A stretch of 64,000 bases of DNA from Escherichia coli (GCA_009729775.1 GCA_009729775.1_4081.1); one strand, 5' to 3'; counted from the stretch's first letter, positions 3,861-57,437 are shown. The notes: a model not told the origin generated them from the letters alone. A program made the numbers and translations.

Positions 3861-3871
3861 TTATTTTCTCC

Positions 3872-3899: not shown

Positions 3900-3912
3900 C
3901 TATAATATCATA

Positions 3913-4524: not shown

Positions 4525-4525
4525 T

Positions 4526-9243: not shown

Positions 9244-9248
9244 GTATA

Positions 9249-11909: not shown

Positions 11910-11915
11910 TCCTCA

Positions 11916-12482
11916 TTAGTATAAATCAGTAATGTCTTTGTATGCATTAATCTGTTTTTGTTGTAATGAAAGTTCATTGAGTTTAGTTACCATTTTATCT
12001 ACACCAACACGTGTATAGAAAATAATAAATGAATCTAAATTGCCTAGAGTAATTCTTGAACTGAAATTTGAAAGTTTTCTTGCATAAACATAAATTTCTT
12101 CTTCACTTGGTAAACGTTTCTCAATCGGCCAGCTTTCCACACCATTCGGCTCATAATCGATTTCAAATTCAACTCCCATCACTGTGTCTTGAATGCGATC
12201 CGTATATGAACCACCGTAAAAATACTCTCTTGGTTTGGATCTCCAACGAGGACTAAATGGGTCAGTTGCGTATTCTTTTACAAATTTGTAAAAGGACATT
12301 TTACTGAGCATATACTTCATCTCAATTAGTGCTTTGCGGTCATCATCAGTTTTAAACTCTGCTTTTAGCGATGGACTTTTACACAGTAACTTAACTAAAT
12401 TGTTGTACATCTTTAATGTACGTTGTTCTTTCATTTCTTTGATTTTGTGACGTTTTGGTGGTGGTAATAAAGATTTGACCAT
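11916..12482 (-). CDS. hypothetical protein, tandem paralog 1 of 3 (188 aa)
   Basis: shares KSPSLK...DDDRKALIEMKYMLSK core; AGGAGG RBS; promoter upstream. Confidence 0.6.
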   Translation of the reverse strand: MVKSLLPPPKRHKIKEMKEQRTLKMYNNLVKLLCKSPSLKAEFKTDDDRKALIEMKYMLSKMSFYKFVKEYATDPFSPRWRSKPREYFYGGSYTDRIQDTVMGVEFEIDYEPNGVESWPIEKRLPSEEEIYVYARKLSNFSSRITLGNLDSFIIFYTRVGVDKMVTKLNELSLQQKQINAYKDITDLY

Positions 12483-15279: not shown

Positions 15280-15295
15280 CTTTCTTTTCCTTAAT

Positions 15296-15883
15296 TTACC
15301 AACCAATTGTACCAGTTTCTGATGGTTTTCCAGTACTGACTGGGAATGAAGAACCTTTTTGTGTAACACTAGGTCTATATGTACTAAATCTGGATACTTT
15401 ATTAATGTTTATATTTGTAATACCACTTGTACCAACGGTCAGTGTTCCAATAAACATTATAATTTCAGATTCTTGTATTTGTGTTGGTGATATTTTATAA
15501 ATTGGTTCACCGAGAACTAACGTTGCATATACGTATTGTGTTTGTGTTCCAGATGAAACTGTTGAAGCAAAAATAGAAACTGCTGGAAATTTATAAAGAT
15601 AACCACCAATAAATGATGGTATCTGTCTATTAAATGTAAGACTATATCCAGATGAAGTGATATTTAGACTTGCATCATCATACAATTCACCGTATTGTGT
15701 GAGGGGTAATCCATTTACAATAAAATTAACTTCATCTTTAGTAATAGAGGGGAATGTACATTCCCCATTTGAATTTGTTGGGTAATAAGTCATATTATTA
15801 CCTAATACACCAAGTCCAGTACTTTTACCTTGTACTGTAACTTGTTGCATTGCCTTAAGGTCTGCTCTTATTTTATATGCCAT
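15296..15883 (-). CDS. small protein (195 aa) sharing the tail-fiber C-terminal module
   Basis: C-terminus ...RFSTYRPSVTQKGSSFPVSTGKPSETGTIGW matches C-termini of both large paralogs. Confidence 0.6.
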   Translation of the reverse strand: MAYKIRADLKAMQQVTVQGKSTGLGVLGNNMTYYPTNSNGECTFPSITKDEVNFIVNGLPLTQYGELYDDASLNITSSGYSLTFNRQIPSFIGGYLYKFPAVSIFASTVSSGTQTQYVYATLVLGEPIYKISPTQIQESEIIMFIGTLTVGTSGITNININKVSRFSTYRPSVTQKGSSFPVSTGKPSETGTIGW

Positions 15884-15894
15884 TATGTAATCCT

Positions 15895-18591
15895 TTACCA
15901 GTTTATGGTTCCTGTTTGTGATGGTAGACCGTAGCTAACTGGGAACGATGAACCTGCTGATTCAAGTGAAGCACCAAATATATCTAAACGGGAACGTTTT
16001 TGTATATTAATTGTTTCGATTTGAATTGCATTAGTTTGAATAGTACCTATCCAAAAAATATTATATGCAGTTGTTCCTGTTTCAGAAATAACATCAGTAG
16101 TTATGTAATAGTTTGCCAATCCTTGTTCCAATTTAACATATACATAGAATGTTGTATTTGCTGGATTAGACTTAATAGTTCTCAAATCAATATTTGAAAC
16201 TGGTAGTGAAAATGACTTACCTGAAAGAATAACAGGTGTTTCCTCAGTAAAATAAACAATAAATCCTTGTGCAACGTCCTGTGACACTAAGTTAATTGGG
16301 CTACCTTGAGCAGTCCAGTTATTATAGTCTGTAATCGTTGTCCCATATTTTTTGAATGTCATTTTATTTGAGTAATCCATTGGCTCCAAAATTCCAAAAC
16401 CAATACCAGGTAATGCTGCGGGTTGACTTCCTTGTTCATAACTGGCATGAGATCCAGTAATAATAAAACTTGTAAATTGTGCAGTTGATTTAGTTACATA
16501 TGCTCTAAATTGATGAGTTGCAGTATTACCTATTGTTGGATGTGTTAATGGGTCAGAACCACCAATGAAGTAGAATGAACCACCATCATATATTGTCAAA
16601 CCAACAGAAGAAGATGCAATCGAACCATTCCCATTTGGTGTAAAGTTATCACCATATGTATTTTCAAGTACTAAACGCTTGAATGTAATAGATGTAATAT
16701 TACCAACTCTAGTATTAACATTAACTTCAGCAATTCTAATATAGTTTCTATAATCATTAGTAACTGTACTCAACATAACGAAAGCAGGAATGTCTGTTTG
16801 TTGCGGAACAAATAGTGTCATATCACGGTATGCTTGTGCTGATAAATTCCAATCACTTAGAACTTTCGCATATTCAGCATTTCTAAAATTATCAAGTACT
16901 GATTGTGTTACACTTATAATACCTGTACCATTTAAGTTTTTATCATAGGATAAAGATTGTGAATAACGTTGTCCAACCATAAAAATACCACCATTGGTTG
17001 TGACAGTTGACCCAGAAATACTACTAATAAAAATTCTATTATTTGCATTATCATCAACATTAGCACGTTCAACTGTAGGTTCATAACCTTGTATTGTTCC
17101 TAAAGATAATGATTTAAATGTAAAATTAGGAGTACTTTTATGAACTGCATATGATGGTCTAAATCCACCACTACCCGAAGCACGTGAATATTGTTTAGTA
17201 CTGTTATCTGGTAGTAATTCCACACCATTAATAAATGAGCCTACGGCTGAACCAAATGATGGACGAACTATTCCACCTTTGAAATCAGTTGATAGTACTG
17301 CACGGACATTCAGCATACTATAAACTATTTGAATAGGAAACTTAGCTTTTTGCATAAGTAATGGTTCTGCTAAGTTTGGACATGCAGTACAAAATGCTTC
17401 ACCAGAATTTAAATAAAAATAAGAACTGTAAATATTCCTTGCATTTGCATGGTTATACAATGGATCGTTATTTAAAACGTTACCAGTAGGAACTAATGCT
17501 GAACCAGTATCCGTTATAACTAATGGTGCTTGGTATGAACCAATATCATTACCCGCATCTAATGTACATTGTTTAGTACTCATATTGAATACAAAACTGT
17601 AACTATGTTGTGGTCGTGTATTATAAGTTGCCATTGTAAACCAAGCATCACCATTCATTCTAAAGCGGAAATTCTGTGTACCTGGCTGCTGTGCAACATA
17701 TAAATCGATTGATGTCATGTAAATCCCAATACCACGTAGATTTTTTGGAACATACACATAAGGTTTATCAGCGATATTCGTTGATGTTACCTGATTAGTT
17801 ATAACCATATTATTTTGTGCAGAATAAGTTGTATTATAAAATGTTTTAGTAGTCCATCCAGTAATACGAGTTGCTGTATAAGTGCCATTACTGATATTAT
17901 AAACAACTTTAACTACAACTAATTGTAATTGGTTATTTGCATTAAGTACGTTGAAAACATATATAGAACCATCTTCTGCCATCATAGCATATTCAATACC
18001 ACCTTCAGGTGATATATCTGCTTGGTTAACGAAAAAACCAGTATGCAATTTATCATCTAATGTACCATTGGTAATTGATATAAACAAACCATTAGTACTG
18101 TTAGAAGTGTCAATATATCTACCGAGTAAAATATTTGGATCAGTATTGTATAAACCAATCGCAACTCGATTTGAACCAAAAAATCCAGGCTTGTATTGAC
18201 GACTTGTGTTAATTGTACGGCTCATGTCATCAACTGATAATGCGTTAGCTAAATATGAATAAAATAATCCCTCAACACTACCGTTTGTCCCACTACGTAA
18301 AAGCACTAGTGTACCATCGTTTTCTAATAAAATTTTATTTCTACGTTGTGTCTGGTTTTCTGATGCACCATTGAAATCTCCAGAAACACCCGCAGGTAGA
18401 TAGTTTTGTGAACCATAATGGGAGATTGGCATCATACTTACTATATCTAGTACTTCATCTCTTGAATAAGTATCTAGCTCCATATTGCCATTAGCATCAA
18501 ATACTTGATCATTGATACCTTGTATTGTTCTTTTACCATTAACTGTCACATTATGTGTGACATCCAAGCCACCATATATTTTCTTTGACAT
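15895..18591 (-). CDS. tail-fiber-like protein, paralog A (898 aa)
   Basis: long Gly/Ser/Thr/Asn-rich ORF; shared N- and C-terminal modules with 12550..15279; T4-type late promoter upstream. Confidence 0.65.
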   Translation of the reverse strand: MSKKIYGGLDVTHNVTVNGKRTIQGINDQVFDANGNMELDTYSRDEVLDIVSMMPISHYGSQNYLPAGVSGDFNGASENQTQRRNKILLENDGTLVLLRSGTNGSVEGLFYSYLANALSVDDMSRTINTSRQYKPGFFGSNRVAIGLYNTDPNILLGRYIDTSNSTNGLFISITNGTLDDKLHTGFFVNQADISPEGGIEYAMMAEDGSIYVFNVLNANNQLQLVVVKVVYNISNGTYTATRITGWTTKTFYNTTYSAQNNMVITNQVTSTNIADKPYVYVPKNLRGIGIYMTSIDLYVAQQPGTQNFRFRMNGDAWFTMATYNTRPQHSYSFVFNMSTKQCTLDAGNDIGSYQAPLVITDTGSALVPTGNVLNNDPLYNHANARNIYSSYFYLNSGEAFCTACPNLAEPLLMQKAKFPIQIVYSMLNVRAVLSTDFKGGIVRPSFGSAVGSFINGVELLPDNSTKQYSRASGSGGFRPSYAVHKSTPNFTFKSLSLGTIQGYEPTVERANVDDNANNRIFISSISGSTVTTNGGIFMVGQRYSQSLSYDKNLNGTGIISVTQSVLDNFRNAEYAKVLSDWNLSAQAYRDMTLFVPQQTDIPAFVMLSTVTNDYRNYIRIAEVNVNTRVGNITSITFKRLVLENTYGDNFTPNGNGSIASSSVGLTIYDGGSFYFIGGSDPLTHPTIGNTATHQFRAYVTKSTAQFTSFIITGSHASYEQGSQPAALPGIGFGILEPMDYSNKMTFKKYGTTITDYNNWTAQGSPINLVSQDVAQGFIVYFTEETPVILSGKSFSLPVSNIDLRTIKSNPANTTFYVYVKLEQGLANYYITTDVISETGTTAYNIFWIGTIQTNAIQIETINIQKRSRLDIFGASLESAGSSFPVSYGLPSQTGTINW

Positions 18592-42530: not shown

Positions 42531-42800
42531 TTATAAAAATGTTAAATCTTCAGTACTTAATTGTGATAATTTACCATCATATTCAATTTCAACATATACA
42601 TTTTGGTCATAAACAGCAACTACACGTTTAATAACTCCAACCTTCACGACATTCTTTTTGTAGTTGAACTCAACTGAACAACCAATAAGTTTATTTGATA
42701 GAATCTCACGTATTTGATTTGCATGATCTTTTAGGATAGAATTAATAGATTTTTTCATAATATATCTATCATTCAAATATTTTTTAACTACATCATGCAT
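42531..42800 (-). CDS. small protein, member of dispersed paralog family (89 aa)
   Basis: core L.....KLIGCSVEF like other ~85-100 aa ORFs. Confidence 0.5.
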   Translation of the reverse strand: MHDVVKKYLNDRYIMKKSINSILKDHANQIREILSNKLIGCSVEFNYKKNVVKVGVIKRVVAVYDQNVYVEIEYDGKLSQLSTEDLTFL

Positions 42801-42805
42801 AATTA

Positions 42806-43564
42806 TTACCTTTTGAAACGATTGAATGAGTACTCATCTTTTTCTTTACGTAAGTATCTCATTCCACCACTTTGTGGAGTAGCGAGAGTTAAGTCACCCG
42901 TCAAGAACTGACTATCAATCCATATGCGATTTCCGTAAATGAGTGGGTCTGTAACTGCTGTATGTCCACTAAAGACACAATGCACTCCATCTAACTTAGG
43001 TGCATAATATGTATTATTAGTTCTACAATAATCGAATGTTTTTCTATCCCACAAGCACTTATCAATTATATCAGCACTAAGTGATTTTGTCCCATTGACA
43101 AATCGTTCCCATGTTGTATATTCCAACGGAACTCCAGCATGAACTAACCCAATCTTCAATCCTCGGTGATTGATTTGGATAATCATAGGGAGATCCTTTA
43201 AGTACTGACGAAAGAATTGAATGCCTGTTCCCCCAACTTCATCAAGGAATTTATCACCACCATTACTTATCCAACAGTGATACCAATCTCGAAGTGTTTC
43301 CGAATCAACGCACATCATCTCATGATTACCAGCAATCATGTAACGATTTTCTCCGAACAAAAATTCAAAAAGGAGCTTTGAATTTTGTTCTCCACGGTCG
43401 ATAATATCACCTACACTGAAAACATAATCATTGTGTGTAATACCAAATTCTTTCACTGTAGCATCCCATAGTTTACCATTACCATGCAAATCACCTACAA
43501 TGTATAAATCTTTATCATCAGGTACGGTTACTTCTAAGAAGTGTTTCATTATTACTCCAACCAT
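42806..43564 (-). CDS. Ser/Thr protein phosphatase, lambda-PPase-like metallophosphatase (252 aa)
   Basis: GDLHGN, GDIIDRG, GNHE motifs; true start probably the internal MKHF. Confidence 0.75.
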   Translation of the reverse strand: MVGVIMKHFLEVTVPDDKDLYIVGDLHGNGKLWDATVKEFGITHNDYVFSVGDIIDRGEQNSKLLFEFLFGENRYMIAGNHEMMCVDSETLRDWYHCWISNGGDKFLDEVGGTGIQFFRQYLKDLPMIIQINHRGLKIGLVHAGVPLEYTTWERFVNGTKSLSADIIDKCLWDRKTFDYCRTNNTYYAPKLDGVHCVFSGHTAVTDPLIYGNRIWIDSQFLTGDLTLATPQSGGMRYLRKEKDEYSFNRFKR

Positions 43565-43803
43565 ATAATATTAGTGTGTTTAGTAACTTGTGTTCCAGCA
43601 AAAGAACCATCTTTAAGATAAGTATTAATTTTAAAACGCCATTCACCCCCACTAATATACATATCAGTAATAATATACTTTCCATACCCTCTGGAGTTTA
43701 TTAATCGTACTTCTTGACCAATATATTTTGGCTTCAGATCATTTATAAAATCATCAGCCAAAGACATAAGATATCGCAAATGTGATAAGTCGGTGTTGAA
43801 CAT
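43552..43803 (-). CDS. small protein, paralog family (83 aa)
   Basis: KPKYIGQEVRLI core. Confidence 0.5.
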   Translation of the reverse strand: MFNTDLSHLRYLMSLADDFINDLKPKYIGQEVRLINSRGYGKYIITDMYISGGEWRFKINTYLKDGSFAGTQVTKHTNIIWLE

Positions 43804-44020: not shown

Positions 44021-44350
44021 TTATTCCTCATCATCCACTAAAACAAGATAATCCAAACTTAACTCGGTATCTATGTAACAATCACAATTCAAGTACTCAA
44101 TTTCAGCACCTATAGTTCTCCCATTCTTAAATATCTCAATGATTTTCATTCTAGTATTGGGATTAATGTGTTCAATGTCGTATTCGTATTCAGGGTCAAT
44201 ATACTCACTTGTCATACGTTTGATGTATTGTTCCGAATATCGTACAGTTTTACCTATAAGATCATTACTCAACGTCTGATAAAAATCATCTTGAATTTTG
44301 AATAATGACCTATAAAAAATATTATGTTGAATTAGTGGTTTCATTGACAT
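44021..44350 (-). CDS. small protein, paralog family (109 aa)
   Basis: SNDLIGKTVRYS core. Confidence 0.5.
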   Translation of the reverse strand: MSMKPLIQHNIFYRSLFKIQDDFYQTLSNDLIGKTVRYSEQYIKRMTSEYIDPEYEYDIEHINPNTRMKIIEIFKNGRTIGAEIEYLNCDCYIDTELSLDYLVLVDDEE

Positions 44351-44979
44351 TAATCACAACTTCCAGACGATGAACTTGAATCAGAACTAGAGCTATCATA
44401 GGAACAAGAATCAGAGGAAGAACTGCTGTGACGGCTATAATCACTGTAATCATCATTGTTGTAGATTGGTGATGTTACGATTGCTGCTGCGGTCGCTGCC
44501 GTTGCAATTTGTGCAGTATGGTCATGAACACCTAGTTGTGGTTCATCCTTAGATTTACCTTTGTTCTTACCTTTAGTGTAACGAGCTTTCTTTGCAGTTT
44601 TAGTATTTTTCTGTACTTTAGGAGCTTTTGGTTTCACATCTTCAACTACTGGAACTACATTCACTACAACTTTAGGATCAGTTTCTTCAAGTGTATTATA
44701 CACTTTAACTTGCATTTGAACTTCAACTTCTTTAACTTCTTCTTTAACTTCTGGAATAACTGTTTCTGGTGCTGGAGTGATTTTATCAAGTTCTTTAGTA
44801 ATAAAGAAGCTTGTATTTTTCTCACCTAGCATAACAAGAAGACCAATGGCAATCACTGGACTTAGTACTGTACCAAGTACTACATAACCTAGAACACTTC
44901 TGTTATAGTTATATGCAAGCATACCAGAAATAATAATACCGATTACATATGCACTGCTAAGAATAATTGGGGTTAACAT
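44350..44979 (-). CDS. membrane protein with low-complexity linker and Ser/Cys-rich C-terminus (209 aa)
   Basis: two N-terminal TM helices; PKV/KEV-rich repeats; C-terminus SSSSSDSCSYDSSSSDSSSSSGSCD. Confidence 0.55.
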   Translation of the reverse strand: MLTPIILSSAYVIGIIISGMLAYNYNRSVLGYVVLGTVLSPVIAIGLLVMLGEKNTSFFITKELDKITPAPETVIPEVKEEVKEVEVQMQVKVYNTLEETDPKVVVNVVPVVEDVKPKAPKVQKNTKTAKKARYTKGKNKGKSKDEPQLGVHDHTAQIATAATAAAIVTSPIYNNDDYSDYSRHSSSSSDSCSYDSSSSDSSSSSGSCD

Positions 44980-45283
44980 ATTCTACTCCTTTGTATATAA
45001 ATTTACTAACTTCTTCGATGTATAAAGACGTTCCTGAACGTTCATTTAGAACTAACCAAGCACCAAAACCACATCGAATCTCGGATATATGAAACTCTTC
45101 TACACTATAATTTGAATACGCGTTAAATGGACATATTTCATCAGATATACTTACCACATAGTTATTATTAATTGAATCTAACACCTGGGTATTGTATAAA
45201 TTATTAGTACTGAAAATCTGCATTAACGAGCTAGAAAGCATCTCGGTTGTCTTTTCTAATATTGTTAAAAACGAACCATTCAC
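44957..45283 (-). CDS. hypothetical protein (108 aa)
   Basis: ORF track; promoter-like TGATATAAT upstream. Confidence 0.5.
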   Translation of the reverse strand: MNGSFLTILEKTTEMLSSSLMQIFSTNNLYNTQVLDSINNNYVVSISDEICPFNAYSNYSVEEFHISEIRCGFGAWLVLNERSGTSLYIEEVSKFIYKGVEYVNPNYS

Positions 45284-45340: not shown

Positions 45341-45646
45341 TCATGATATTCGCATTTCATCTATATATAATGAACATGATTCAGAATTATCGTCTAAACT
45401 TAAACCTAAATCGACCATTAAACCACAATGCGTTCCCCAGAATTTTTTTATGTATAGTTTTTTGCTACTATTACCTAAATCATAAACATATTCATTTTTA
45501 AACATACTTTTTAATTCTTCACATATACATTTTACTATCTTCATTAATTGATTATGATATTCGTATGGTATCCCATCAAGTTCGTTAATTATTAATGCAA
45601 AACCATTATCATAGTACTTTAGCTTATTGAATGTTTGTATATCCAT
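45341..45646 (-). CDS. hypothetical protein (101 aa)
   Basis: ORF track. Confidence 0.5.
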   Translation of the reverse strand: MDIQTFNKLKYYDNGFALIINELDGIPYEYHNQLMKIVKCICEELKSMFKNEYVYDLGNSSKKLYIKKFWGTHCGLMVDLGLSLDDNSESCSLYIDEMRIS

Positions 45647-45943
45647 TTAATATATAATCTCACTAGCTTCTATTGTGTAGACACCATCATCAGTCATTAA
45701 TCTTACTGCAACTTTAATATTACTAGACATTCGTGTAACTATCAATCCAATAATTATACCATTCTTTAAAGTACCATTATGGTATCTAACTTTTACTTCA
45801 GTTTTATTATCAATTAAGTATCTTCTAATTATGTGTATTTCATTTCTGAATAATTCTAAAAAAGCTTCACTATTTTCTTTATCTGACCCGTCTGAACACC
45901 AGTACAATAAATTTACTTGTTCAAATAATTTTTTTATATTCAT
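45647..45943 (-). CDS. hypothetical protein (98 aa)
   Basis: ORF track. Confidence 0.5.
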   Translation of the reverse strand: MNIKKLFEQVNLLYWCSDGSDKENSEAFLELFRNEIHIIRRYLIDNKTEVKVRYHNGTLKNGIIIGLIVTRMSSNIKVAVRLMTDDGVYTIEASEIIY

Positions 45944-46299
45944 AAAAATCTCACAGATTTAATATTACTGGTTACATGATTTACCCAAGTGTTATCGAAC
46001 TTGTAAACAATTGTATTAAGTGATTTATGAAAATTAACCTCGCACACTAATGCCTTGGAACCATTGATTGTACAGACCGTGGATGGTAAGTTGTTTGCTA
46101 ATATCTCTTTTTCATCTAAACAAAGTGAACTAATACAATCATAATAGAGAGGTTCAAGAACTTTTTCAGTACTGAGAAATTCAAAAGAAAGATCATCTAT
46201 TAGTTTTATGTAATCGAATAAATTATGATAATATTCATTCATTGTAGATCCTTTTAAATTTAGCATTATTAGAATATGTATATGAATGACCAAAATCAT
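45940..46299 (-). CDS. hypothetical protein (119 aa)
   Basis: ORF track. Confidence 0.5.
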   Translation of the reverse strand: MILVIHIHILIMLNLKGSTMNEYYHNLFDYIKLIDDLSFEFLSTEKVLEPLYYDCISSLCLDEKEILANNLPSTVCTINGSKALVCEVNFHKSLNTIVYKFDNTWVNHVTSNIKSVRFL

Positions 46300-46489
46300 T
46301 TACACCATGTACATTTAGTACACCGTCACTGAAATAAATTCGATCAATAGTGAGTTCACGTTTATAATCCCAATCATCATACCAGCACAGAACACGAATA
46401 CCTTTGTACTTTGTAGTTAAATCATTTTCTAATATAGTCAAGTAATCAATATGACTTTTGAATATCTCTAAGTCCTGCTCAAACATCAT
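46235..46489 (-). CDS. small protein, paralog family (84 aa)
   Basis: TTKYKGIRVLCW core. Confidence 0.5.
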   Translation of the reverse strand: MMFEQDLEIFKSHIDYLTILENDLTTKYKGIRVLCWYDDWDYKRELTIDRIYFSDGVLNVHGVNDFGHSYTYSNNAKFKRIYNE

Positions 46490-46746
46490 TGTTCCTCGTA
46501 TAATTCTATATCATCAACTCCAACTTGGCGAATTGCAGTACTTCTGTTGAATGTATTTTTTTCAAACAAACATACTGTTAAACGTATTTCACACTTCAAT
46601 GCACTGTAATAAATCATATCAATAACACCATATGTTTCATACATTTCTACGTATACATTTCGACCTAAATACTTTTCTTCTAAATCAGTAATTAGACTAT
46701 TGATAAGATTACCTATCTGTGTTATATCTGTGTGAAATTTATCCAT
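46486..46746 (-). CDS. small protein, paralog family (86 aa)
   Basis: EEKYLGRNVYVE core. Confidence 0.5.
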   Translation of the reverse strand: MDKFHTDITQIGNLINSLITDLEEKYLGRNVYVEMYETYGVIDMIYYSALKCEIRLTVCLFEKNTFNRSTAIRQVGVDDIELYEEQ

Positions 46747-47916: not shown

Positions 47917-48231
47917 TTACTCAATGAATTCTACATCTTCGAGTTTGTGCCATCCTCTTGAAAGGTTTCTTGTTCCGTTATTGTATTCAGTGTATACAAA
48001 GCATTCACCATTTACTAAATTACCAATAGCAGTACGCGATACTTTAACATCAAGAATTATAGTACTGAACCATTCTCTGATTGTATGATCCCAGCATTTA
48101 ACTTTACATCCAATCAATGTTTTCTTAAAATCGAAAACGTAATCTTCGACCATTGATTCGACAGATTCTATTAGTTCCTTTTCAATGTACTTTAACTTTT
48201 CGATCCTCTCAAATGCAAGTTCTTTATTCAT
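47917..48231 (-). CDS. small protein, paralog family (104 aa)
   Basis: KKTLIGCKVKCW core. Confidence 0.5.
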   Translation of the reverse strand: MNKELAFERIEKLKYIEKELIESVESMVEDYVFDFKKTLIGCKVKCWDHTIREWFSTIILDVKVSRTAIGNLVNGECFVYTEYNNGTRNLSRGWHKLEDVEFIE

Positions 48232-48237
48232 ATGTCC

Positions 48238-48492
48238 TCAATTATCTAGAACATCCACTATCAAACAAGCTTCAATAACGAAACAATCATCTAATTCAAA
48301 GAGTAATTGATAGTCATCAGAAAACTTCACTTTAGTAATGTAAGCACTTTCAATTCCACCACTATGATAAGAACTATATAAAATACATTTACCTGTATAT
48401 TCCTTACGGATACGACTAAATTCTTCATATAAATGAGTAATAAACGTATCCGCAGTTTTGTTGTAGTATTTTAGGTCACTTACTGTGCTCAT
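48238..48492 (-). CDS. small protein, paralog family (84 aa)
   Basis: RKEYTGKCILYS core. Confidence 0.5.
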   Translation of the reverse strand: MSTVSDLKYYNKTADTFITHLYEEFSRIRKEYTGKCILYSSYHSGGIESAYITKVKFSDDYQLLFELDDCFVIEACLIVDVLDN

Positions 48493-49000: not shown

Positions 49001-50143
49001 CTAAAAATCCTTTAGTACAATTTTCATGTATTTTATAAGAGTCTCTTTGTAATCAACTTTCTTATTGTTATACATTGCAAAGGCCAAGCCCTGACGATTC
49101 AGTTCATTAGTTAAACACTCCTGAACCTTCATTGCGAATTCCTTTCGCTCCAAGTGCTTGTGTTCCTTGACGAAGCTTTCTACTTCATCTTGTAATGCAT
49201 TATAGCACGAAAATACCAATTGTTCCATTCTTAATATCTTTTGCATAGCATATTCATCAGTACTGAACAATTGTTTTAAATCATCACTAGAACCATTTAA
49301 TACTGCTTCATATAAATGAGAATCAATAATAATACTATCTTTTGTAAGATGTAATGAACTGTACCAGTCAGTCTTTATTTTACACATTGTCCCATTATTT
49401 AGGATGCACACAAAACCCTCAATATCAAGCATTTTATGAACTTCCTCCACGCTTTCACGGAAGGTATTTCGTACCGGAAAAGTGTGATGAATATCTTTTC
49501 CAGTCATATTAGTACTGTACTGTGCAAGACATGGAAACTTATCACGTAGTGCTTTACCACATAGCAACTCACCACTCACACGATGACGAACGTTCAGTAC
49601 AAACAGTTGTTCTACCTGATATGGTAATACAATTCGGTACTCTGGGCTTGTATACTCCATATTAACTGTGTAACCTAAACGTTCCGCTTCGTCGATGTAC
49701 TGATACAAATTCTGGTTCTCGTTAATAAGTCGAGTACTGTTAATCGCATGGTCAGAGTACAATGCAGTATGTGATTTACAACGAATCTCACCATCATTAT
49801 CACGGTAAGTACTGATTACTGAACCATCCAACTTAGGCATCACTACTGCAATGTCATTACATGTGGTGTTGGCAGGGAACATTGTAGCAGGATTCTCATA
49901 AGCATTAAAGAACTTTTTCATAGTACGGGCAGCACAACGAATCATTTCACCTTCTTCATCAATTTCCCACATAGATCCACGGGTTTCTAATGCATTGGGT
50001 TGCATGAAATCAGTATATGATGCTAGTCGGTAACTGAATACACGATACGTGCCACCAGCAGGACTTTTATGATCTACATAAAAGAACGCATCGTTTGTAT
50101 TACATAAGTGCATTAAATCTTCATATATTTGCAAAAGGGTCAT
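49001..50143 (-). CDS. rnlA: RNA ligase 1 (T4 Rnl1-like)
   Basis: N-terminus and KxDG adenylation motif (MPKLDGS) closely parallel T4 RnlA as I recall it; 380 aa; AGAGGT RBS. Confidence 0.9.
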   Translation of the reverse strand: MTLLQIYEDLMHLCNTNDAFFYVDHKSPAGGTYRVFSYRLASYTDFMQPNALETRGSMWEIDEEGEMIRCAARTMKKFFNAYENPATMFPANTTCNDIAVVMPKLDGSVISTYRDNDGEIRCKSHTALYSDHAINSTRLINENQNLYQYIDEAERLGYTVNMEYTSPEYRIVLPYQVEQLFVLNVRHRVSGELLCGKALRDKFPCLAQYSTNMTGKDIHHTFPVRNTFRESVEEVHKMLDIEGFVCILNNGTMCKIKTDWYSSLHLTKDSIIIDSHLYEAVLNGSSDDLKQLFSTDEYAMQKILRMEQLVFSCYNALQDEVESFVKEHKHLERKEFAMKVQECLTNELNRQGLAFAMYNNKKVDYKETLIKYMKIVLKDF

Positions 50144-50448
50144 TTTATTACCTCTATATCTACATCAGTTCCATAATATGATATTAATCCATCATCAGAT
50201 TCACACTGAATAGACAACTCAGATTCATAGTATGTTACTTTATTCACTGTTAGTACGTGTTCTTCAATTTTTCCAGAAAAATAATTCATTTCACGCACAC
50301 GAACTTTAGTTCCTTTAGGTAGTTCATCTGAGATTTTTTGAACAAGTTCATAAGCAGCCTGTTCAAGTGTGTACAGTAATTGTAATCTATCTTGAATATT
50401 CATATTATTTCCACCAACTTGTATCACGTCCATTAGACAAAGATTCAT
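50140..50448 (-). CDS. small protein, paralog-family-like (102 aa)
   Basis: ELPKGTKVRVRE core. Confidence 0.5.
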   Translation of the reverse strand: MNLCLMDVIQVGGNNMNIQDRLQLLYTLEQAAYELVQKISDELPKGTKVRVREMNYFSGKIEEHVLTVNKVTYYESELSIQCESDDGLISYYGTDVDIEVIK

Positions 50449-51676: not shown

Positions 51677-51979
51677 TTATCCTCTTAATTTAATAGTACT
51701 GGCTGGATATTCTACCAAAGTATTATCAGGTAATCCTATACAGTAATAAGGGAAATACCCCATCTTTATATTAATACCAATTAAAATTCCTGTTTTATAT
51801 GAAGTATTAATTCCATAGTAATCGTCTATATCAACAGCAAGTCCATATAATGATATGTTACAATCCTTGATATATCGGTCAAACATTTTATACATTGCAG
51901 AATATAAAGTTCCATTGGATTGTCTCACCAAATCAGCCAACATTTTGATAGTACTGTTAATTAAATCTATACTGAACAT
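51677..51979 (-). CDS. hypothetical protein (100 aa)
   Basis: ORF track. Confidence 0.5.
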   Translation of the reverse strand: MFSIDLINSTIKMLADLVRQSNGTLYSAMYKMFDRYIKDCNISLYGLAVDIDDYYGINTSYKTGILIGINIKMGYFPYYCIGLPDNTLVEYPASTIKLRG

Positions 51980-52023: not shown

Positions 52024-52305
52024 TTAAATTATTTCATAAAGACAATATACACCATCAACACCAGCATCAGGAAAATCAACATAGAAATTCACACTAACAG
52101 TGTCGTAATCTATATCAGTGATTCGTCCGGTTTTACCTACACTTTTTACAAATATATCAGTACCAAGATACACAAACTCAAATTCGTCAGCATACTCTTT
52201 TATGATATCTGCGAACCAACAACCACACCTAGGTTCTGTGTTAATAATTTCAAGATATAATGTAATATATTGTTCGTATGTCCATGTGTGTAGATAAAAA
52301 TCCAT
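52024..52305 (-). CDS. hypothetical protein (93 aa)
   Basis: ORF track. Confidence 0.5.
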   Translation of the reverse strand: MDFYLHTWTYEQYITLYLEIINTEPRCGCWFADIIKEYADEFEFVYLGTDIFVKSVGKTGRITDIDYDTVSVNFYVDFPDAGVDGVYCLYEII

Positions 52306-52315: not shown

Positions 52316-53053
52316 TTAGAAATATATCATACCCATCAATTCAGAATCGGCGGGGCGAGTATAACCTTGCTTCTTAACTTTAAAATAGAATGATTCATGC
52401 TCTTCTAAATTATAACGTTTTTTCAAGCAACGAGTGTATGTCTGACAATTTGGGTGAACCCATTCATAAATGTGAATGCCATTTTCGTCATAACCATTTA
52501 TACTACAACGATTTCCTTCATGCTTCATAAAGTTTTTACTTTTTTCAGTAAATTCTTTCACTGTAGTTGTATATGGAGATTTGTATTCAAAAGGAACTTC
52601 AGTCATACGAAAATAATAGTATTCTTCGTCTTCATCATATCCCAAGAGCACTGTGTTAGTTTCACGTACATTGTAATGATTCTTACTTTTTAATTCATTT
52701 TCGTATATATCTTTCAGTACTTCTGCAAAAACTTCATCGCTTGATGCATTAGGATTAGATACACCTGATACTCGGCGTTCAATAATAAAATCAGTGAATT
52801 TGCGGTCTTCGGCAATATCTTCGTTCATATAAAGACTAACAAACTTATCCTTATATGTCTTTACACTATATTGCTTACTTTGTACTTCACTATAAACATC
52901 TGCTAACATATTCTCCTGACCACACTGCACACCACTTACAGAATAAGCACATGCATGTTCAGCCATTACTGATGTTAACATTTGGAAATTTGCCATGTTT
53001 AATTCATTCGCCATCTCTGTAGCGAAACGGATACGGTCAAGCATTTCACACAC
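52316..53053 (-). CDS. hypothetical protein (245 aa)
   Basis: ORF track. Confidence 0.55.
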   Translation of the reverse strand: MCEMLDRIRFATEMANELNMANFQMLTSVMAEHACAYSVSGVQCGQENMLADVYSEVQSKQYSVKTYKDKFVSLYMNEDIAEDRKFTDFIIERRVSGVSNPNASSDEVFAEVLKDIYENELKSKNHYNVRETNTVLLGYDEDEEYYYFRMTEVPFEYKSPYTTTVKEFTEKSKNFMKHEGNRCSINGYDENGIHIYEWVHPNCQTYTRCLKKRYNLEEHESFYFKVKKQGYTRPADSELMGMIYF

Positions 53054-53102
53054 TCCTTGTGTTAATTATTGTTCCTTACCCATTATTATATCATGAATTA
53101 AA

Positions 53103-53399
53103 CTATTGTCCCTGTTTATAGCAATAAAGATTCTCTAATTTAAAGTCCACTAGGTCACATTCAGAACGTACTCGATTCTTGTTCCAGAATAAAATACGAA
53201 TCCTTTCATAATCACGATAAACACTAATAATGCTTCGGTGCTTGGATTTGTAGTACTCCTGTACTATCCCCAGATACACAGTCCTCAATAAAGACTTAGT
53301 TGGATAGGGCATATTCTGTGCTGACGTGATATTGTAAATCATCTTCATTGTTTCAGCAATAAGTACTTCATTTGTTCTCATTGTAATCCTTACATACAC
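53103..53399 (-). CDS. hypothetical protein (98 aa; track start is GTG, ATG at 53379-53381 more likely)
   Basis: ORF track plus hand check of start codon. Confidence 0.5.
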   Translation of the reverse strand: MYVRITMRTNEVLIAETMKMIYNITSAQNMPYPTKSLLRTVYLGIVQEYYKSKHRSIISVYRDYERIRILFWNKNRVRSECDLVDFKLENLYCYKQGQ

Positions 53400-53544
53400 T
53401 ATGCAAAGTAAACCCTAAACCAACACCGACAAATGGAAATAGTAAATTGATATACCAAGTATTAATTGATGAAAGGAAACAAATCCCACATACTGTCAGT
53501 ACTGCCAATGAAAAAAGACTCCAGATAAAAAATACTGTTCTCAT
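53368..53544 (-). CDS. small hydrophobic membrane protein (58 aa), not in ORF track
   Basis: hand translation MRTVFFIWSLFSLAVLTVCGICFLSSINTWYINLLFPFVGVGLGFTLHSVCKDYNENK; ATGA overlap with stop of 53541..53831. Confidence 0.35.
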   Translation of the reverse strand: MRTVFFIWSLFSLAVLTVCGICFLSSINTWYINLLFPFVGVGLGFTLHSVCKDYNENK

Positions 53545-53831
53545 AAAAATGTTACCTCATCAAATGAAAAGTTTAAGTACGTTGTTGAATCTTGGTCTAA
53601 ACTATGAATAGTAATATGACCATTGAAATAAAAAGAAACATCAACTATTTGAAGTTTTGGGTATTTTCTAGTACTGAAATACCTTCCTACTACTAAGTCA
53701 GAAAACATATTTCTGTATTCTTGTGTTACGTTTTTGTATAGGTTATGTAGAGCACTTTCTTGTGAATCGAAAGTAATGGAATAATCTTTCACCAATATAG
53801 CATATGTTTTCTGCATTAAAATGATATTCAT
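53541..53831 (-). CDS. small protein, tandem paralog array member 1 (96 aa)
   Basis: N-terminal QKTYAILVKDY and SDLVVGRYF core shared with array. Confidence 0.5.
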   Translation of the reverse strand: MNIILMQKTYAILVKDYSITFDSQESALHNLYKNVTQEYRNMFSDLVVGRYFSTRKYPKLQIVDVSFYFNGHITIHSLDQDSTTYLNFSFDEVTFL

Positions 53832-54214
53832 AAATCTCCTAATACCTCAAAAATTACTGATATTGGGTATAATGGGTTACCAGTTGAAGTAATACATACA
53901 ATTAGTACGTTTTTTCCTGGTCCCACATCCGTTATAGTGAAATTAATATTATTAATATTCAGTGATTTACCAATATAATGCTCTTTCAATAATTCAACAA
54001 AATAATCCAGTACTGGATTATCTGCACTATATGATAACTCAGTACTTGATATCATTTTATATGTATGAACTATTAGTTCAGCTTTAGTCATGAACACGCT
54101 CACAATTAAGGCAATAAATGCACTCAATGTCAGGTCGCCATGATTTATCAAAATCTTTGTGCTGTTCTTCGGTGTATTCTGCATCATCATTAATAGGGAA
54201 GAAATCACCAGCAC
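53828..54214 (-). CDS. small protein, paralog family (track 128 aa; likely ~75 aa from ATG 54053-54055)
   Basis: KEHYIGKSLNI core; 5' part of track ORF overlaps the zinc-ribbon ORF. Confidence 0.45.
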   Translation of the reverse strand: MLVISSLLMMMQNTPKNSTKILINHGDLTLSAFIALIVSVFMTKAELIVHTYKMISSTELSYSADNPVLDYFVELLKEHYIGKSLNINNINFTITDVGPGKNVLIVCITSTGNPLYPISVIFEVLGDL

Positions 54215-54284
54215 CAGTCGCCCAGTCTGAATCTAAACGGAAACGAGCTAATTGAGTACTGTTACAATATGGACACTTATTCAA
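54084..54284 (-). CDS. small zinc-ribbon protein (66 aa, TTG start)
   Basis: CPYC ... CLNC; AAGGA RBS 8 nt upstream of TTG. Confidence 0.4.
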   Translation of the reverse strand: MNKCPYCNSTQLARFRLDSDWATGAGDFFPINDDAEYTEEQHKDFDKSWRPDIECIYCLNCERVHD

Positions 54285-54561
54285 AATTTATTCCTTCTAA
54301 CTGATATACGTTTAATGAAAATGACCCACTATTATTATCGCATCTGAAACACAGTGTTAAAGAACCATTAAAACTAACTACATCCGTACAGATACATTTT
54401 TCACCATTGGATATGATAGATTTTCCTATATATAAATCTCTTACTATAGTACGGTAATGTTGCCATAAAAAATAATACACACTTTCATAGTACTCATCTT
54501 TTACATATGATAAGTATAAGAATTTATAAAATACTTGTATTTCCTTTAAGTTGTTTTTCAT
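54277..54561 (-). CDS. small protein, tandem paralog array member (94 aa)
   Basis: EIQVFYKFLYLSY N-terminus; RDLYIGKSI core. Confidence 0.5.
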   Translation of the reverse strand: MKNNLKEIQVFYKFLYLSYVKDEYYESVYYFLWQHYRTIVRDLYIGKSIISNGEKCICTDVVSFNGSLTLCFRCDNNSGSFSLNVYQLEGINFE

Positions 54562-54835
54562 TCTCCAACTCCAGTAAATTTACACCAATCCAATCAACAT
54601 CACTATCAGTACTTAATTCCAATCGTAGCTTACCGCTATGACTAACAATATCGCGGAATTTGTATATTTTATTATCACGAACTATACACAAATCATGGTA
54701 ATATTCATGTAATTCATCCAAAAACTTTATCCATACCGAACGATAGATTTCACCGTAGAGATATTCTCCAGCATCAACCGTAGCGTATTGGATATACAAA
54801 AATTTATATGTGAATTGTATATCATTTAATAACAT
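54524..54835 (-). CDS. small protein, tandem paralog array member (103 aa)
   Basis: LNDIQFTYKFLYIQY N-terminus; 20-nt identity with next paralog at 5' end. Confidence 0.5.
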   Translation of the reverse strand: MLLNDIQFTYKFLYIQYATVDAGEYLYGEIYRSVWIKFLDELHEYYHDLCIVRDNKIYKFRDIVSHSGKLRLELSTDSDVDWIGVNLLELENEKQLKGNTSIL

Positions 54836-54845
54836 ATGTAACCTC

Positions 54846-55157
54846 TTATAAATTCACCAACTTCACAACTTTAATCTCGATAAATCCCCTATCGGTTATT
54901 TCAAGAAATTCAACATGGATAATCCCATTGTATGATTTAACTCCAGAGAACTCGAATATATCATTTCCGTCGATAAAAGTACTGTAATTCTTTTTTATAT
55001 ATTCACCTACTGAATCTAAGTACTCAATATATAAATCAATAAATGGTTGTTCTTTGTATGGGTTATGTGAACCTATTTTGTTACTAACAAGGTATACATC
55101 ATACAAATCATATAGGATCTTATAAGTGAATTGTATATCATTTAAATTTAATCCCAA
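54846..55157 (-). CDS. small protein, tandem paralog array member (103 aa)
   Basis: LNDIQFTYKILYDLY N-terminus. Confidence 0.5.
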   Translation of the reverse strand: MGLNLNDIQFTYKILYDLYDVYLVSNKIGSHNPYKEQPFIDLYIEYLDSVGEYIKKNYSTFIDGNDIFEFSGVKSYNGIIHVEFLEITDRGFIEIKVVKLVNL

Positions 55158-55414
55158 GGGAATATCTCCAACGGAATACTGGTAAATCCAAAATCAGTGT
55201 AGTACTGAACCTCAACTTTACCATCACGTCTAATGATTATATCAGAAAATTCTGCATGGTCATCACCAATAATAACAGTACTGAATTTTTTTTTAATCTT
55301 ACCACGAATCGTATGAATCATTTCAGTGCATGTGTCTTCTAGACTAGGGCTATCATTGTCGTGTGCTAAATCTCGAATAATCTTGTATGTTAGTAGGAAA
55401 TCTTTATAATTCAT
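55148..55414 (-). CDS. small protein, tandem paralog array member (88 aa)
   Basis: KDFLLTYKIIRDL N-terminus. Confidence 0.5.
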   Translation of the reverse strand: MNYKDFLLTYKIIRDLAHDNDSPSLEDTCTEMIHTIRGKIKKKFSTVIIGDDHAEFSDIIIRRDGKVEVQYYTDFGFTSIPLEIFPWD

Positions 55415-55686
55415 ATGTCCACCAAATCTATACTATATCTTTCATTAGTATTACTATCTATAAATGATAGTACTAATTTACCACCAAAACTATTAACTTG
55501 TTCTATCTTCTGTTTTTTACCACGAATGATTATCTCACTATTAACAAAATATTCACGTATCATTATTAAGTGATTAATCCAGATAGTATGAGTGAATGTG
55601 TTTTCTCGTATTGTATTGAGATATCTTCCATTGTGATGTAAATCAAACAAAACACTGTATGTATATTGTAGAACTTTATAATTCAT
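55411..55686 (-). CDS. small protein, tandem paralog array member (91 aa)
   Basis: KVLQYTYSVLFDL N-terminus. Confidence 0.5.
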   Translation of the reverse strand: MNYKVLQYTYSVLFDLHHNGRYLNTIRENTFTHTIWINHLIMIREYFVNSEIIIRGKKQKIEQVNSFGGKLVLSFIDSNTNERYSIDLVDI

Positions 55687-55698: not shown

Positions 55699-55726
55699 AA
55701 AAATAGCCCGAACTTATGTCGGGCTA
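55699..55726 (-). terminator. intrinsic terminator (TAGCCCGA/TCGGGCTA) plus U5
   Basis: perfect 8-bp stem; A-run 55699-55703 on plus; downstream of stop of 55733..56419. Confidence 0.55.
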
Positions 55727-55732
55727 TGTACA

Positions 55733-56419
55733 TTATTCATCGTCGTCATCGTCATCTAGATCGATATAGATACTATCATCACCATCATCAAAGTACTCCA
55801 CAATAACTCCTGGAATATTAAGGGCAGTAAACATTGCATCATATTTCTCATCAGATGGAATCAAAACAAATTCATCAATGTTTTGAACTTCTGGCATTTT
55901 ATCTTCGGGGATACCCATATCAACAAGTGACTGAATAATCTTTTCTTTGAATTCTAAAAACTTCTCTTCAGATTCAAAATCCATAATAAGCTGTGCAACA
56001 TATCCTTCATCGTTACCGAATGAAATTGACATTTGTGCATCAGTGCCGACATAGCACCAAACACGTTTACCTGTGTGCTGCTCAATAAAGTTTTGAATCT
56101 GTAACACAATGTCATGGCGAGAACTGTTAGCAATGTTGTTAAGATTTTCTACACCAGCATTAATTCCAGTACTGTCATTTGTTTCTTCAAATTCACCATA
56201 ATCACCCAATACATACTGTACACCTTCATGATGTAATGCATATGCATAGTCAAGGTCAGCGAGTGAATCGCACTTTCCACGGATCGGACGTAGGGAAAGA
56301 CCTAAGCGAAGATAACGGAAGTATGTATTAGTATTTGTATTTGTCAACGTAATGCTCCTTAACAATATAAAAGTAGTTGCTGTTATTGTCAAAAAAGATA
56401 ACCATCCCTTTATAGACAT
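55733..56419 (-). CDS. hypothetical protein with poly-Asp C-terminal tail (start uncertain)
   Basis: ORF track; C-terminus IDLDDDDDDE; N-terminal ~30 codons overlap 56328..56627. Confidence 0.5.
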   Translation of the reverse strand: MSIKGWLSFLTITATTFILLRSITLTNTNTNTYFRYLRLGLSLRPIRGKCDSLADLDYAYALHHEGVQYVLGDYGEFEETNDSTGINAGVENLNNIANSSRHDIVLQIQNFIEQHTGKRVWCYVGTDAQMSISFGNDEGYVAQLIMDFESEEKFLEFKEKIIQSLVDMGIPEDKMPEVQNIDEFVLIPSDEKYDAMFTALNIPGVIVEYFDDGDDSIYIDLDDDDDDE

Positions 56420-56903: not shown

Positions 56904-57437
56904 TTATTTCCTCATGTATTTTATAACGTCTTCAAATAATTGTATTTTTAAGTCCTCGTCATTTCCAGGTAAAAACTCACGAAAACTAGCAAAATCTTCA
57001 TTTTTTGCGAAGTTACGCATTTGTGTTGAGCTATATTGACTTACATTACGGTCAATACCTGCCTGAATTGCTTTTATACTACAAAAATTATACAACTTAC
57101 CATTGTACATGTCAAGAGTTTTTTGAAAAGAATCAATACGGTCAGAACCACAAATGAAAAGAACATCTAAGTACTTTCCATCCAGTTCTCTCATTATATC
57201 AAATAGATTGTCTTCTGTGTAGATGTTCTCTTGCACTGAAGGATAGAATCCCTCTGTATAATACATTTTTAGTTCAGGTGGGAGTGGGTTTTTTATATTG
57301 TCAGTACTGGTGCTTAGATATATTTTTAAATCAGCATTGTACTGTTCTTGTAATGTTTTGGCCTTTTCAAAAACTAAACCATGTCCACGATGTACAGGAT
57401 TAATACGACCAAACGTTAATACACATGTTTCTTTCAT
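56904..57437 (-). CDS. HxGH-motif nucleotidyltransferase, NMN/NaMN adenylyltransferase-like (177 aa)
   Basis: FGRINPVHRGH (cytidylyltransferase-fold H-x-G-H) and downstream SSTQMR (cf. ISSTxIR); substrate not determinable. Confidence 0.55.
   Translation of the reverse strand: MKETCVLTFGRINPVHRGHGLVFEKAKTLQEQYNADLKIYLSTSTDNIKNPLPPELKMYYTEGFYPSVQENIYTEDNLFDIMRELDGKYLDVLFICGSDRIDSFQKTLDMYNGKLYNFCSIKAIQAGIDRNVSQYSSTQMRNFAKNEDFASFREFLPGNDEDLKIQLFEDVIKYMRK

Follow-up and report, generated by a model that had tools for sequence, protein, structure and literature searches.

The 64-kb window analyzed here (the whole stretch of 64,000 nucleotides) comes from an Asteriusvirus, a 121Q/PBECO4-like member of the Rak2-like jumbo coliphages, and carries on its minus strand, at 53541-55686, a tandem paralogous multigene family whose similarity goes beyond shared composition. 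An initial sequence-only reading had counted six paralogous open reading frames (ORFs) here; the family itself is real, but the interval holds eight back-to-back ORFs, namely seven family genes, designated A1-A7, and one unrelated zinc-ribbon (Zn-ribbon) gene that intrudes among them. The array genes are real, translationally coupled, old and fast-evolving; their members are individually losable, and they make up a fold family without a catalytic signature. Outside Asteriusvirus jumbo coliphages, the family has only a few relatives, in Klebsiella phage K64-1. We favor, with a probability of about 0.55, the reading that this is a genus-restricted family of small, soluble, non-structural proteins acting as accessory binders in a plastic region of the genome.

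The 4.5 kb around the array are 99.2% identical to Escherichia phage 121Q and 94-99% identical to about 20 other Asteriusvirus jumbo coliphages. The guanine-cytosine (GC) content is ~33%, all genes lie on the minus strand, and minus-strand ORFs of at least 70 amino acids (aa) span 92% of the window. The interval corresponds to 121Q genes 422-429, each annotated as 'hypothetical protein'.

Sequence and fold evidence for one family

Relatedness was assessed using phmmer against a database of the window's own ORFs, hhalign on profiles built from orthologs only, and a shuffle test giving a Smith-Waterman z value against 300 composition-preserving shuffles. A1-A5 match one another with phmmer E-values of 1e-7 to 4e-4. 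Eight pairs of array genes have a shuffle z above 5, with a maximum of 12.7 for A2 and A3 (phmmer E 1e-5, hhalign probability 95%), versus a mean of 0.07 and a maximum of 2.2 for pairs among 11 other small ORFs. Most A1-A5 pairs reach hhalign probabilities of 83-98.6%, the weakest directly listed pair, A2-A4, standing at 57%. Individual links include A1 to A5 (phmmer E 2e-7), A1 to A4 (hhalign 98.6%), A3 to A4 (phmmer E 7e-8, hhalign 97.7%) and A5 to A4 (phmmer E 8e-8), the N-terminal EIQVFYKFLY of A5 aligning with the family motif.

Two members are divergent. A7, which is missed by single-sequence search, scores E 2.7e-5 against the 34-sequence family hidden Markov model (HMM); its orthologs in phage A4, ph0011 and vB_Ec-M-J score 1e-5 to 3e-4 against HMMs built without A7, and the JNE01 gene at the equivalent position scores 3e-8. 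Iterative HMM searching at E <= 1e-5 converges on exactly six window genes, A1-A5 and A7. At E <= 1e-4, A6 enters as well, giving seven window members with zero decoys recruited; this gene is linked by hhalign to A4 (76.9%) and A5 (46.5%), and its shuffle z against A5 is 6.1. A five-sequence HMM built from the window alone found no further members, for which deeper profiles are needed.

The sequence-only reading had itself pointed to the danger that the shared motifs might be driven by composition, that is, that they reflect chance among AT-rich small ORFs with no real family behind them. The genome has 33% GC and contains many small ORFs alike in length and composition, and five candidates outside the array (those starting at 44957, 45341, 45647, 48238 and 50140) indeed fall below significance. 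Against such an explanation stand the phmmer and shuffle values given above, the absence of any recruited reversed or shuffled decoy, control small ORFs that never expand under the same iteration, and a confident structural model that retrieves other family members by structure. Chance is refuted for A1-A7 and for the core of the dispersed family B described below; we give it practically no weight, and it is possible only for marginal candidates.

Structure prediction, suggested at the outset as a check, was run with AlphaFold2 (AF2) on A4 using a 34-sequence alignment and gave a model with a predicted local distance difference test score (pLDDT) of 85.9 and a predicted template modelling score (pTM) of 0.73. 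The protein is predicted to fold as a helical hairpin (helices 3-18 and 25-45) followed by a small β domain (strands 50-53, 56-66, 69-75 and 82-86, a short helix at 87-92 and a strand at 94-96). Among 25 non-redundant members, N2, Q7, T9, Y10, W35, S65, G68 (invariant) and L90 are conserved at 70% or more, and no conserved acidic, His or Cys constellation was seen. The conserved residues look like scaffold positions, and the family lacks a catalytic or metal-binding motif.

A Foldseek search of the A4 model against BFVD returned only family members at E < 1e-3. One match is a 96-aa slurp01 protein (A0A1C3S6P8; template modelling score (TM) 0.69, E 2.7e-4, 16% identity), which would be the A7 ortholog as judged from its length and 16% identity only. 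An 89-aa RaK2 protein came back at TM 0.61 and E 0.04. Most array members are mildly acidic (isoelectric point (pI) 4.5-5.8) and soluble, and membrane segments are not predicted in them.

A profile of the five core paralogs retrieved 34 clusters from a collection of 5.8 billion proteins, and an exhaustive HMM search with a 32-sequence profile across 1.84 billion representatives yielded 22 proteins at E <= 1e-3, two of which are repeat-protein artefacts. For all ten clusters whose source was looked up, this was an Asteriusvirus phage or an E. coli assembly contig of ~350 kb. The proposed lineage-specific expansion is supported by this count of about 20 clusters and by the sources looked up, which are all of Asteriusvirus type. 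No significant match to the array family was found in Pfam (searched per protein and per alignment), NCBIfam, PADLOC or a PDB sequence profile search, and none of the family A or B members matched the Pfam anti-restriction and anti-defence models (e.g., Ocr, ArdA, Lar). A match of A2 to the PADLOC model REase_II PDLC03543 (positions 157-227 of 331, E 7.8e-4; 1e-4 to 1e-3 for near-identical orthologs) was judged to be due to chance because 76%-identical orthologs lack it; the Pfam matches to DpnI (E 0.02) and DUF4928 (E 0.14, A2) were rejected as single-subfamily matches below threshold.

In PHROGs, the array proteins match groups 21004, 32291, 35943, 28826 and 33961 with E-values of 1e-44 to 1e-63, all labelled 'unknown function'; A5 is the exception, with weak matches only (E 1.6e-4 and 7.7e-4). 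Weak cross-matches between groups 21004 and 32291 already hint at paralogy. Whereas PHROGs presents five unrelated-looking groups, the present analysis treats them as one family, and the fold model and the link to dispersed genes are likewise new. A literature search on 121Q, PBECO4, Asteriusvirus and Rak2 topics found neither a published description of the array family nor an Asteriusvirus transcriptome.

Age, variation and selection

An identical stretch of 20 nucleotides (nt) between two neighbours had been taken as a sign of recent duplication. The stretch itself is present: 54804-54829 at the 5' end of A4 and 55120-55145 at the 5' end of A3 agree at 25 of 26 nt, 20 of them exactly in a row. 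Translated, these 26 nt read LNDIQFTYK, the best-conserved stretch of the family, written in AT-rich preferred codons, and in every phage examined, several paralogs contain strings such as ...GATATACAATTCACATATAA.... Nucleotide identity among the paralogs is limited to this motif-coding stretch. The 20-nt identity is explained by the conserved NDIQFTYK peptide combined with AT-rich codon bias, to which occasional gene conversion may have contributed.

The recent date, by contrast, did not survive. Protein identity between array paralogs is 14-29%, and most of them have their own orthologs in relatives. In ph0011 and vB_Ec-M-J, orthologs of A1-A5 and A7 are present at 55-100% identity, with the gene order around the shared Zn-ribbon gene unchanged, and phage A4 holds orthologs of A1, A4, A5, A6 and A7 together with other diverged copies. 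Judged from these comparisons of sequence, the duplications are old and predate the divergence of the genus.

The slot that houses the array is bordered by the cytidyltransferase block on one side and a conserved 242-aa gene on the other. A copy-number comparison across related phages, also proposed at the outset, gave seven copies in the window/121Q, ph0011, vB_Ec-M-J and phage A4, four (3 + 1) in JNE01, two in K64-1 (significant, and flanking the same Zn-ribbon gene), and none in Serratia phage BF, Salmonella phage Munch, Cronobacter phage GAP32 and Escherichia phage EJP2. In ph0011, vB_Ec-M-J and phage A4, the seven members are arranged around the Zn-ribbon gene just as in the window. In EJP2, the same slot (L008 2125-5635), from the cytidyltransferase to the 242-aa gene, is occupied by seven consecutive genes of ~100-190 aa, a different tandem family; at least two of them, at 3741-4310 and 4307-4837, are strong paralogs (E 3.6e-36), and one more is weakly related.

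Between Asteriusviruses, array members are 36-76% identical, as against 85-98% for the flanking enzymes, and orthologs of array genes are kept in phages whose enzymes are just 75-90% identical. Identities form a mosaic: for A5 they are 100% in vB_Ec-M-J, 96% in phage A4 and 59% in ph0011, and for A7 94% in phage A4 and ~55% in ph0011 and vB_Ec-M-J. This pattern points to allelic classes that would be swapped by recombination. A 176-bp deletion in Salmonella phage SD-15_S21 (window 53683-53858) has turned A6 and A7 into a single in-frame fusion. Its 124-aa coding sequence (L012 1042-1416) consists of 77 codons from the start of A6 and 47 from the end of A7, joined at non-homologous positions. 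Truncated or hybrid A2/A3 genes also occur in related SD phages (P0025, P0030, P0034).

Selection was measured as the Nei-Gojobori (NG86) ratio of nonsynonymous to synonymous divergence (dN/dS) against the close relative UE-S1, from which the window differs by a dS of ~0.13-0.2. The pooled dN/dS is 0.41 for A1-A7, 0.15 for the dispersed family, 0.20 for other small ORFs and 0.08 for 12 enzymes and conserved genes. Single array genes range from 0.23 to 0.73, with A1, A6 and A7 at 0.49-0.73 (A1 at 0.73). Selection on the array is purifying but relaxed.

Operon, genomic setting and dispersed relatives

The array genes follow one another with start/stop overlaps of 4-38 nt or with 10-nt spacing, and a Shine-Dalgarno-like site precedes each start; the start of A2 overlaps the stop of A1 by 4 nt, and the first 38 nt of A5 lie inside the 3' end of A4. 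The two non-member genes at the operon end (Table 1) are attached by overlaps of 4 and 14 nt. The operon is bordered upstream by a 46-nt gap holding a terminator-like hairpin and downstream by a 58-nt gap. A1-A7 and the Zn-ribbon gene form one translationally coupled operon in a hypervariable slot.

The Zn-ribbon gene showed no similarity to the array family in sequence and profile comparisons. Its identity stands at 97-100% among most Asteriusviruses, at 85% in JNE01 and at 71% in K64-1 gp587, and its dN/dS is 0.03; the gene represents a conserved anchor of the slot amid the fast-evolving array. Its K64-1 annotation reads 'transcription factor IIS-like', and in Pfam it gave weak matches only, e.g., to Lar_restr_allev (E 0.19, 12.4 bits versus a cut-off of 28.6).

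Public start annotations disagree with the family alignment. The conserved N-terminal helix motif is present in the 94-aa form of A5 and the 96-aa form of A7 but missing from the corresponding 121Q genes 426 (78 aa) and 429 (83 aa), and several records give gene 428 as 118-128 aa. From the alignment, the starts of genes 426 and 429 look too short and the 128-aa gene 428 too long. The 128-aa form of A6 (53828-54214) overlaps the Zn-ribbon gene and was set aside in favor of the 87-aa form.

The hairpin in front of A1 is conserved, with pairing-preserving changes, in ph0011, phage A4, JNE01 and vB_Ec-M-J (-12 to -15 kcal/mol), and the space between it and the A1 ribosome-binding site is too short for a promoter. 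The promoter-like site at 57087-57115 is one of just two 12/12 sigma-70 matches on the gene strand of the window, the other lying at ~5751 (-). Its hexamers are invariant and identically placed in phage A4, ph0011, vB_Ec-M-J, JNE01, K64-1 and Munch, with a variable spacer; this conservation could stem partly from the encoded LD..NGKLYN peptide. An 11/12 sigma-70-like site is found at 56392..56364 (-). Only the 12/12 site was kept from the promoter scan, because it is conserved; among strong candidate promoters, it lies closest upstream of the gene block closed by the hairpin in front of A1. Since the array lies directly downstream of a conserved terminator, its expression probably depends on transcripts that start at sigma-70-type promoters further upstream and read through, as happens with T4 delayed-early genes. 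For the early region assumed by the sequence-only reading, this promoter-like site and the terminator are indirect evidence only.

The gene strand has two more terminator-like hairpins, at 52017-51998, after the gene at 52024-52305, and at 46968-46942, after the polynucleotide kinase gene; terminators are annotated in UE-S1 at the corresponding positions. Between 42 and 58.5 kb, terminator-like sites are enriched (12 found versus 4.7 +/- 2.5 in shuffles).

T4-type enzyme genes surround the array, encoding Dam methylase, cytidyltransferase, RnlA RNA ligase and polynucleotide kinase, along with a NinI-like phosphatase, a Pth2-like hydrolase and a DNA ligase. Just upstream of the array's terminator, the gene at 55733-56347 (-) encodes a 204-aa protein (pI 4.06, net charge ~-30) with the C-terminal sequence DLDDDDDDE; it is kept in all Rak2-like genera examined, and in its charge it is like DNA-mimic proteins. 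The 58-nt gap downstream of the operon (53045-53102) is an insertion site in relatives: the equivalent gap holds a 924-nt 'endonuclease' gene in vB_Ec-M-J (L010 7577-8500) and a 1485-nt ORF in ph0011 (L003 11298-12782). Other paralogs in the window, all on the minus strand, are the genes at 12550-15369 and 15895-18591 (939 and 898 aa, E 7e-63), which have a related ORF of 195 aa lying in between, and three ORFs of ~170-190 aa at 10882-12482 (E 7.5e-13 and 1.4e-4).

A second family, B, comprises at least five small genes at 42.5-48.2 kb and, to judge from the profile comparisons, is real. An HMM of the five B genes and their orthologs finds K64-1 genes on which it was not trained, with E-values of 3e-6 to 2e-4. 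Family B is genus-restricted, and no Pfam match to it was found. The AF2 model of the hub gene 43552-43803 (pLDDT 76.2; five models ranging from 43 to 76, hence unstable) shows a long helix at 2-27 followed by five strands. The probable member at 42531-42800 scores E 6e-3 against the B5 HMM (6e-4 to 7e-3 for its orthologs) and 9.6e-17 against the merged HMM after inclusion. For the possible distant member at 45940-46242, direct pairwise support was not found.

Families A and B have two features in common: Y-[IL]-G-x-x-[VI] where helix passes into strand, which within family A is shown by A5, A6 and many metagenomic members, and an S-x-x-G-type turn between strands 2 and 3. At E <= 1e-4, the seeds 43552 and 47917 grow via K64-1 intermediates (gp615, gp589 and others) to all seven A genes; under the same iteration, eleven other seeds outside both family cores do not expand to other window genes. 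The merged iteration recruited 205 real sequences but none of the 1752 reversed or shuffled decoys (best decoy E 0.023), all recruits being ORFs of 83-128 aa from the same two gene clusters. The merged count is 14 window members, A1-A7 together with the genes starting at 42531, 43552, 44021, 45940, 46235, 46486 and 47917.

The sequence-only reading had proposed at least ten further ORFs with a similar core. Seven do join, namely the five-gene family B plus 42531 and 45940, but five others are not significant and were rejected, with merged-HMM E-values at decoy level: 44957-45283 (9), 45341-45646 (0.11), 45647-45943 (0.009), 48238-48492 (0.08) and 50140-50403 (0.29). Two of these have indirect links, 48238 through an hhalign probability of 59% to 44021, and 50140 through a K64-1 homolog (9029-9316) shared with family B. 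The ORFs at 51677-51979, 52024-52305 and 53103-53381 were likewise rejected, scoring no better than decoys.

Table 1. Array genes, members of the dispersed family B and associated sites in the window
Feature	Coordinates	Strand	Description
A1	55411-55686	-	Core member, 91 aa; 121Q gene 422; PHROG 32291
A2	55148-55414	-	Core member, 88 aa; 121Q gene 423; PHROG 35943
A3	54846-55157	-	Core member, 103 aa, TTG start; 121Q gene 424; PHROG 21004
A4	54524-54835	-	Core member, 103 aa, modelled by AF2; 121Q gene 425; PHROG 21004
A5	54277-54561	-	Core member, 94 aa; 121Q gene 426
Zn-ribbon gene	54084-54284	-	66 aa, CPYC...CLNC (CxxC...CxxC); non-member inside array
A6	53828-54091	-	Divergent member, 87 aa; 121Q gene 428; PHROG 33961; motifs HTYKMI, HYIGKS
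A7	53541-53831	-	Divergent member, 96 aa; 121Q gene 429 (annotated 83 aa there); PHROG 28826
Hydrophobic protein	53368-53544	-	58 aa; non-member, tail of same overlapped operon
Basic protein	53103-53381	-	92 aa; non-member, operon end; merged HMM E 0.051, decoy level
Promoter-like site	57087-57115	-	Perfect sigma-70 consensus TTGACA-N17-TATAAT inside 3' part of cytidyltransferase gene
Intrinsic-terminator-like hairpin	55703-55727	-	ATAGCCCGAC...GTTCGGGCTAT then TTTTTG; ends 17 nt before A1 start codon
B hub	43552-43803	-	83 aa; 121Q gene 454; KYIGQEV at helix-strand junction
B member	44021-44350	-	109 aa; 121Q gene 452; hhalign 68.5% to 43552, 59% to 48238-48492; shuffle z 4.6
B member	46235-46489	-	84 aa; 121Q gene 446; hhalign 58.6% to 43552; merged HMM E 1.3e-6
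B member	46486-46746	-	86 aa; 121Q gene 445; versus 43552: phmmer E 6.7e-4, hhalign 83.6%, z 7.0
B member	47917-48231	-	104 aa; 121Q gene 442; hhalign 68.9% to 43552
Probable B member	42531-42800	-	89 aa; 121Q gene 456; hhalign 28-30% to 47917 and 44021
Possible distant member	45940-46242	-	100 aa; 121Q gene 447; last iteration rounds only, E 2.8e-6

Possible functions and significance

In the scenario that we favor, old tandem duplications would have been followed by birth and death of copies, mosaic recombination and relaxed purifying selection. Each protein is modelled as an N-terminal helical hairpin bearing (D/E)-I-Q-F-T-Y-K-x-L-Y and a small β domain with the invariant Gly in an S-x-x-G turn. 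We hypothesize that each paralog binds a different host or phage macromolecule stoichiometrically, and that the array could provide a panel of accessory, dispensable factors that help to take over the host or to counter its defences. Such a role is suggested by a neighbourhood rich in genes that elsewhere repair or evade host attack, including RnlA and PNK, Dam, and the NAD-salvage genes in K64-1 and BF.

Several observations weigh against this reading. The binder or accessory role is deduced from the lack of catalytic motifs, from how residues are conserved and from the genomic setting. Gene-wide dN/dS is below 1 in all array members, so that positive diversifying selection is not seen at the level of whole genes, and sigma-70-like sites are not enriched in the promoter scan (91 found versus 95 expected from shuffles). 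A Foldseek search of the family B model against BFVD gave nothing significant (best E 0.035) and no structural link to the array. Direct family-level hhalign between A and B reaches probabilities of 3-23% (P 9e-4 to 1e-2) and was rejected as proof of homology, and the mean A-B shuffle z of 0.39 is like that of A against controls (0.43). A link of the wider family to the array emerges from the decoy-free transitive iteration alone; overall, we consider a single superfamily of A and B rather probable.

A further-reaching version is speculative. According to it, the 14 genes form one superfamily on an undescribed two-module scaffold, in which a helical hairpin or a helix is combined with a small β barrel, and each paralog would stoichiometrically inhibit a different defence or takeover target. 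Taken jointly with this, the family would be the phage counterpart of the multigene families of African swine fever virus (ASFV) and poxviruses, its turnover tracking the defence repertoire of E. coli and Salmonella, a combination that we regard as doubtful.

A role of the array proteins as transcription or translation regulators, docking on RNA polymerase, the ribosome or nucleic acid through an SH3, KOW or Tudor-like barrel, appears unlikely. The CarD/TRCF RID and NusG KOW domains are models for such docking. In this case, the paralogs would adjust gene expression of the host or the phage instead of counteracting defence. Some weak signals lean this way: the BFVD matches include a KOW-domain protein and IF5A (E 0.14-0.18), single B members weakly match PRC_RimM and Spt6_S1 barrels (E ~0.02), the family B junction KYIGxxVxL followed by strands resembles, in our reading, a KOW motif, and the neighbourhood is rich in nucleic-acid enzymes (RnlA, PNK, Pth2, ligase, Dam). 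However, the Pfam KOW, Tudor and CarD models are unmatched even at E <= 1 (66 family A or B members in the case of KOW), the order is helix-then-β here and β-then-helix in CarD, and the acidity of most members (pI 4.5-5.8) is unusual for nucleic-acid binders.

The array might also be evolutionary filler, i.e., ORFans duplicated in a recombination-prone slot and kept by weak selection or hitch-hiking with little specific function. The elevated dN/dS of A1, A6 and A7 (up to 0.49-0.73), the natural loss, fusion and truncation seen in SD-15_S21 and related Salmonella phages, the variable copy number, the complete replacement of slot content in other Rak2-like genera, and the homing-endonuclease-type insertions beside the slot in vB_Ec-M-J together with the extra ORF in ph0011 would all fit. 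Yet the ORFs are intact, Shine-Dalgarno-like sites and fold-defining residues are kept despite synonymous divergence, the pooled dN/dS is clearly below 1, and seven copies are maintained in four divergent Asteriusviruses; this explanation, too, is held to be improbable.

T4 internal proteins IPI-IPIII are polymorphic and are injected to protect incoming DNA, and the small size, polymorphic locus and mildly acidic to neutral character of the array proteins recall such packaged virion proteins. The published text on the phAPEC6 virion proteome (62 virion proteins, PMC7247149), however, contains no gp38x entries, and the A6 ortholog there is gp385c, for which reason the array proteins are probably non-structural. 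Their genes lie among early- or middle-type enzyme genes outside the structural module, no conserved N-terminal targeting or cleavage motif was seen, and the conserved N-terminus is a predicted folded helix. Packaging in the virion is therefore considered very improbable, and accessory binders remain our preferred reading.

Hyperplastic regions in the T4 superfamily hold polymorphic small early and internal-protein genes. The array slot resembles them in its small, same-strand, packed ORFs between conserved enzyme genes and in content that differs sharply among collinear relatives, and its layout of promoter, terminator and further genes is like that of T4 delayed-early units. It differs in that the slot holds one expanded paralogous family (seven genes, perhaps 14) and not unrelated ORFans; no sequence relationship of the array genes to any T4 gene was found.

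In jumbo phages, tandem arrays of more than 30 similar genes have been proposed to drive genome expansion (PMC13282480, PMC7247149), and the array of phAPEC6 was brought up in a discussion of tail appendages (PMC7247149). The present array shares with these the same-strand tandem duplication, and phAPEC6 belongs to the same phage group. Unlike those closely related genes, A1-A7 are small, non-virion and highly diverged, at 14-29% identity. For ASFV MGF110/360/505 and the poxvirus host-range families ('genomic accordions'), a function in host range or immune evasion has been demonstrated. The array is like them by analogy only, being lineage-restricted, located in a variable region and fast-evolving, with copy-number variation and dispensable copies. 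There is no homology, and in contrast to recent accordion-like amplification, which was not seen, the array copies are old.

Together, our results describe a multigene family that is specific to its lineage and sits in a plastic region of a jumbo-phage genome, a kind of feature not described before but not surprising either. Paralog arrays are expected in such regions of large phages, and the view of phage genome evolution is unchanged. Should the binder-panel reading prove wrong, the gain in annotation remains, as five PHROGs collapse into one family. About 83% of the genes in this group of jumbo coliphages have no known function (PMC7247149); the host phages belong to a therapeutically used group, and the fold has no close solved relative. 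Natural variation offers a handle on function, through allelic classes of 36-100% identity, the 3+1 array of JNE01 and the in-frame fusion of a phage propagated on Salmonella. If the binder-panel reading is true, these 7-14 genes would constitute a compact candidate set for new host-takeover or anti-defence proteins.

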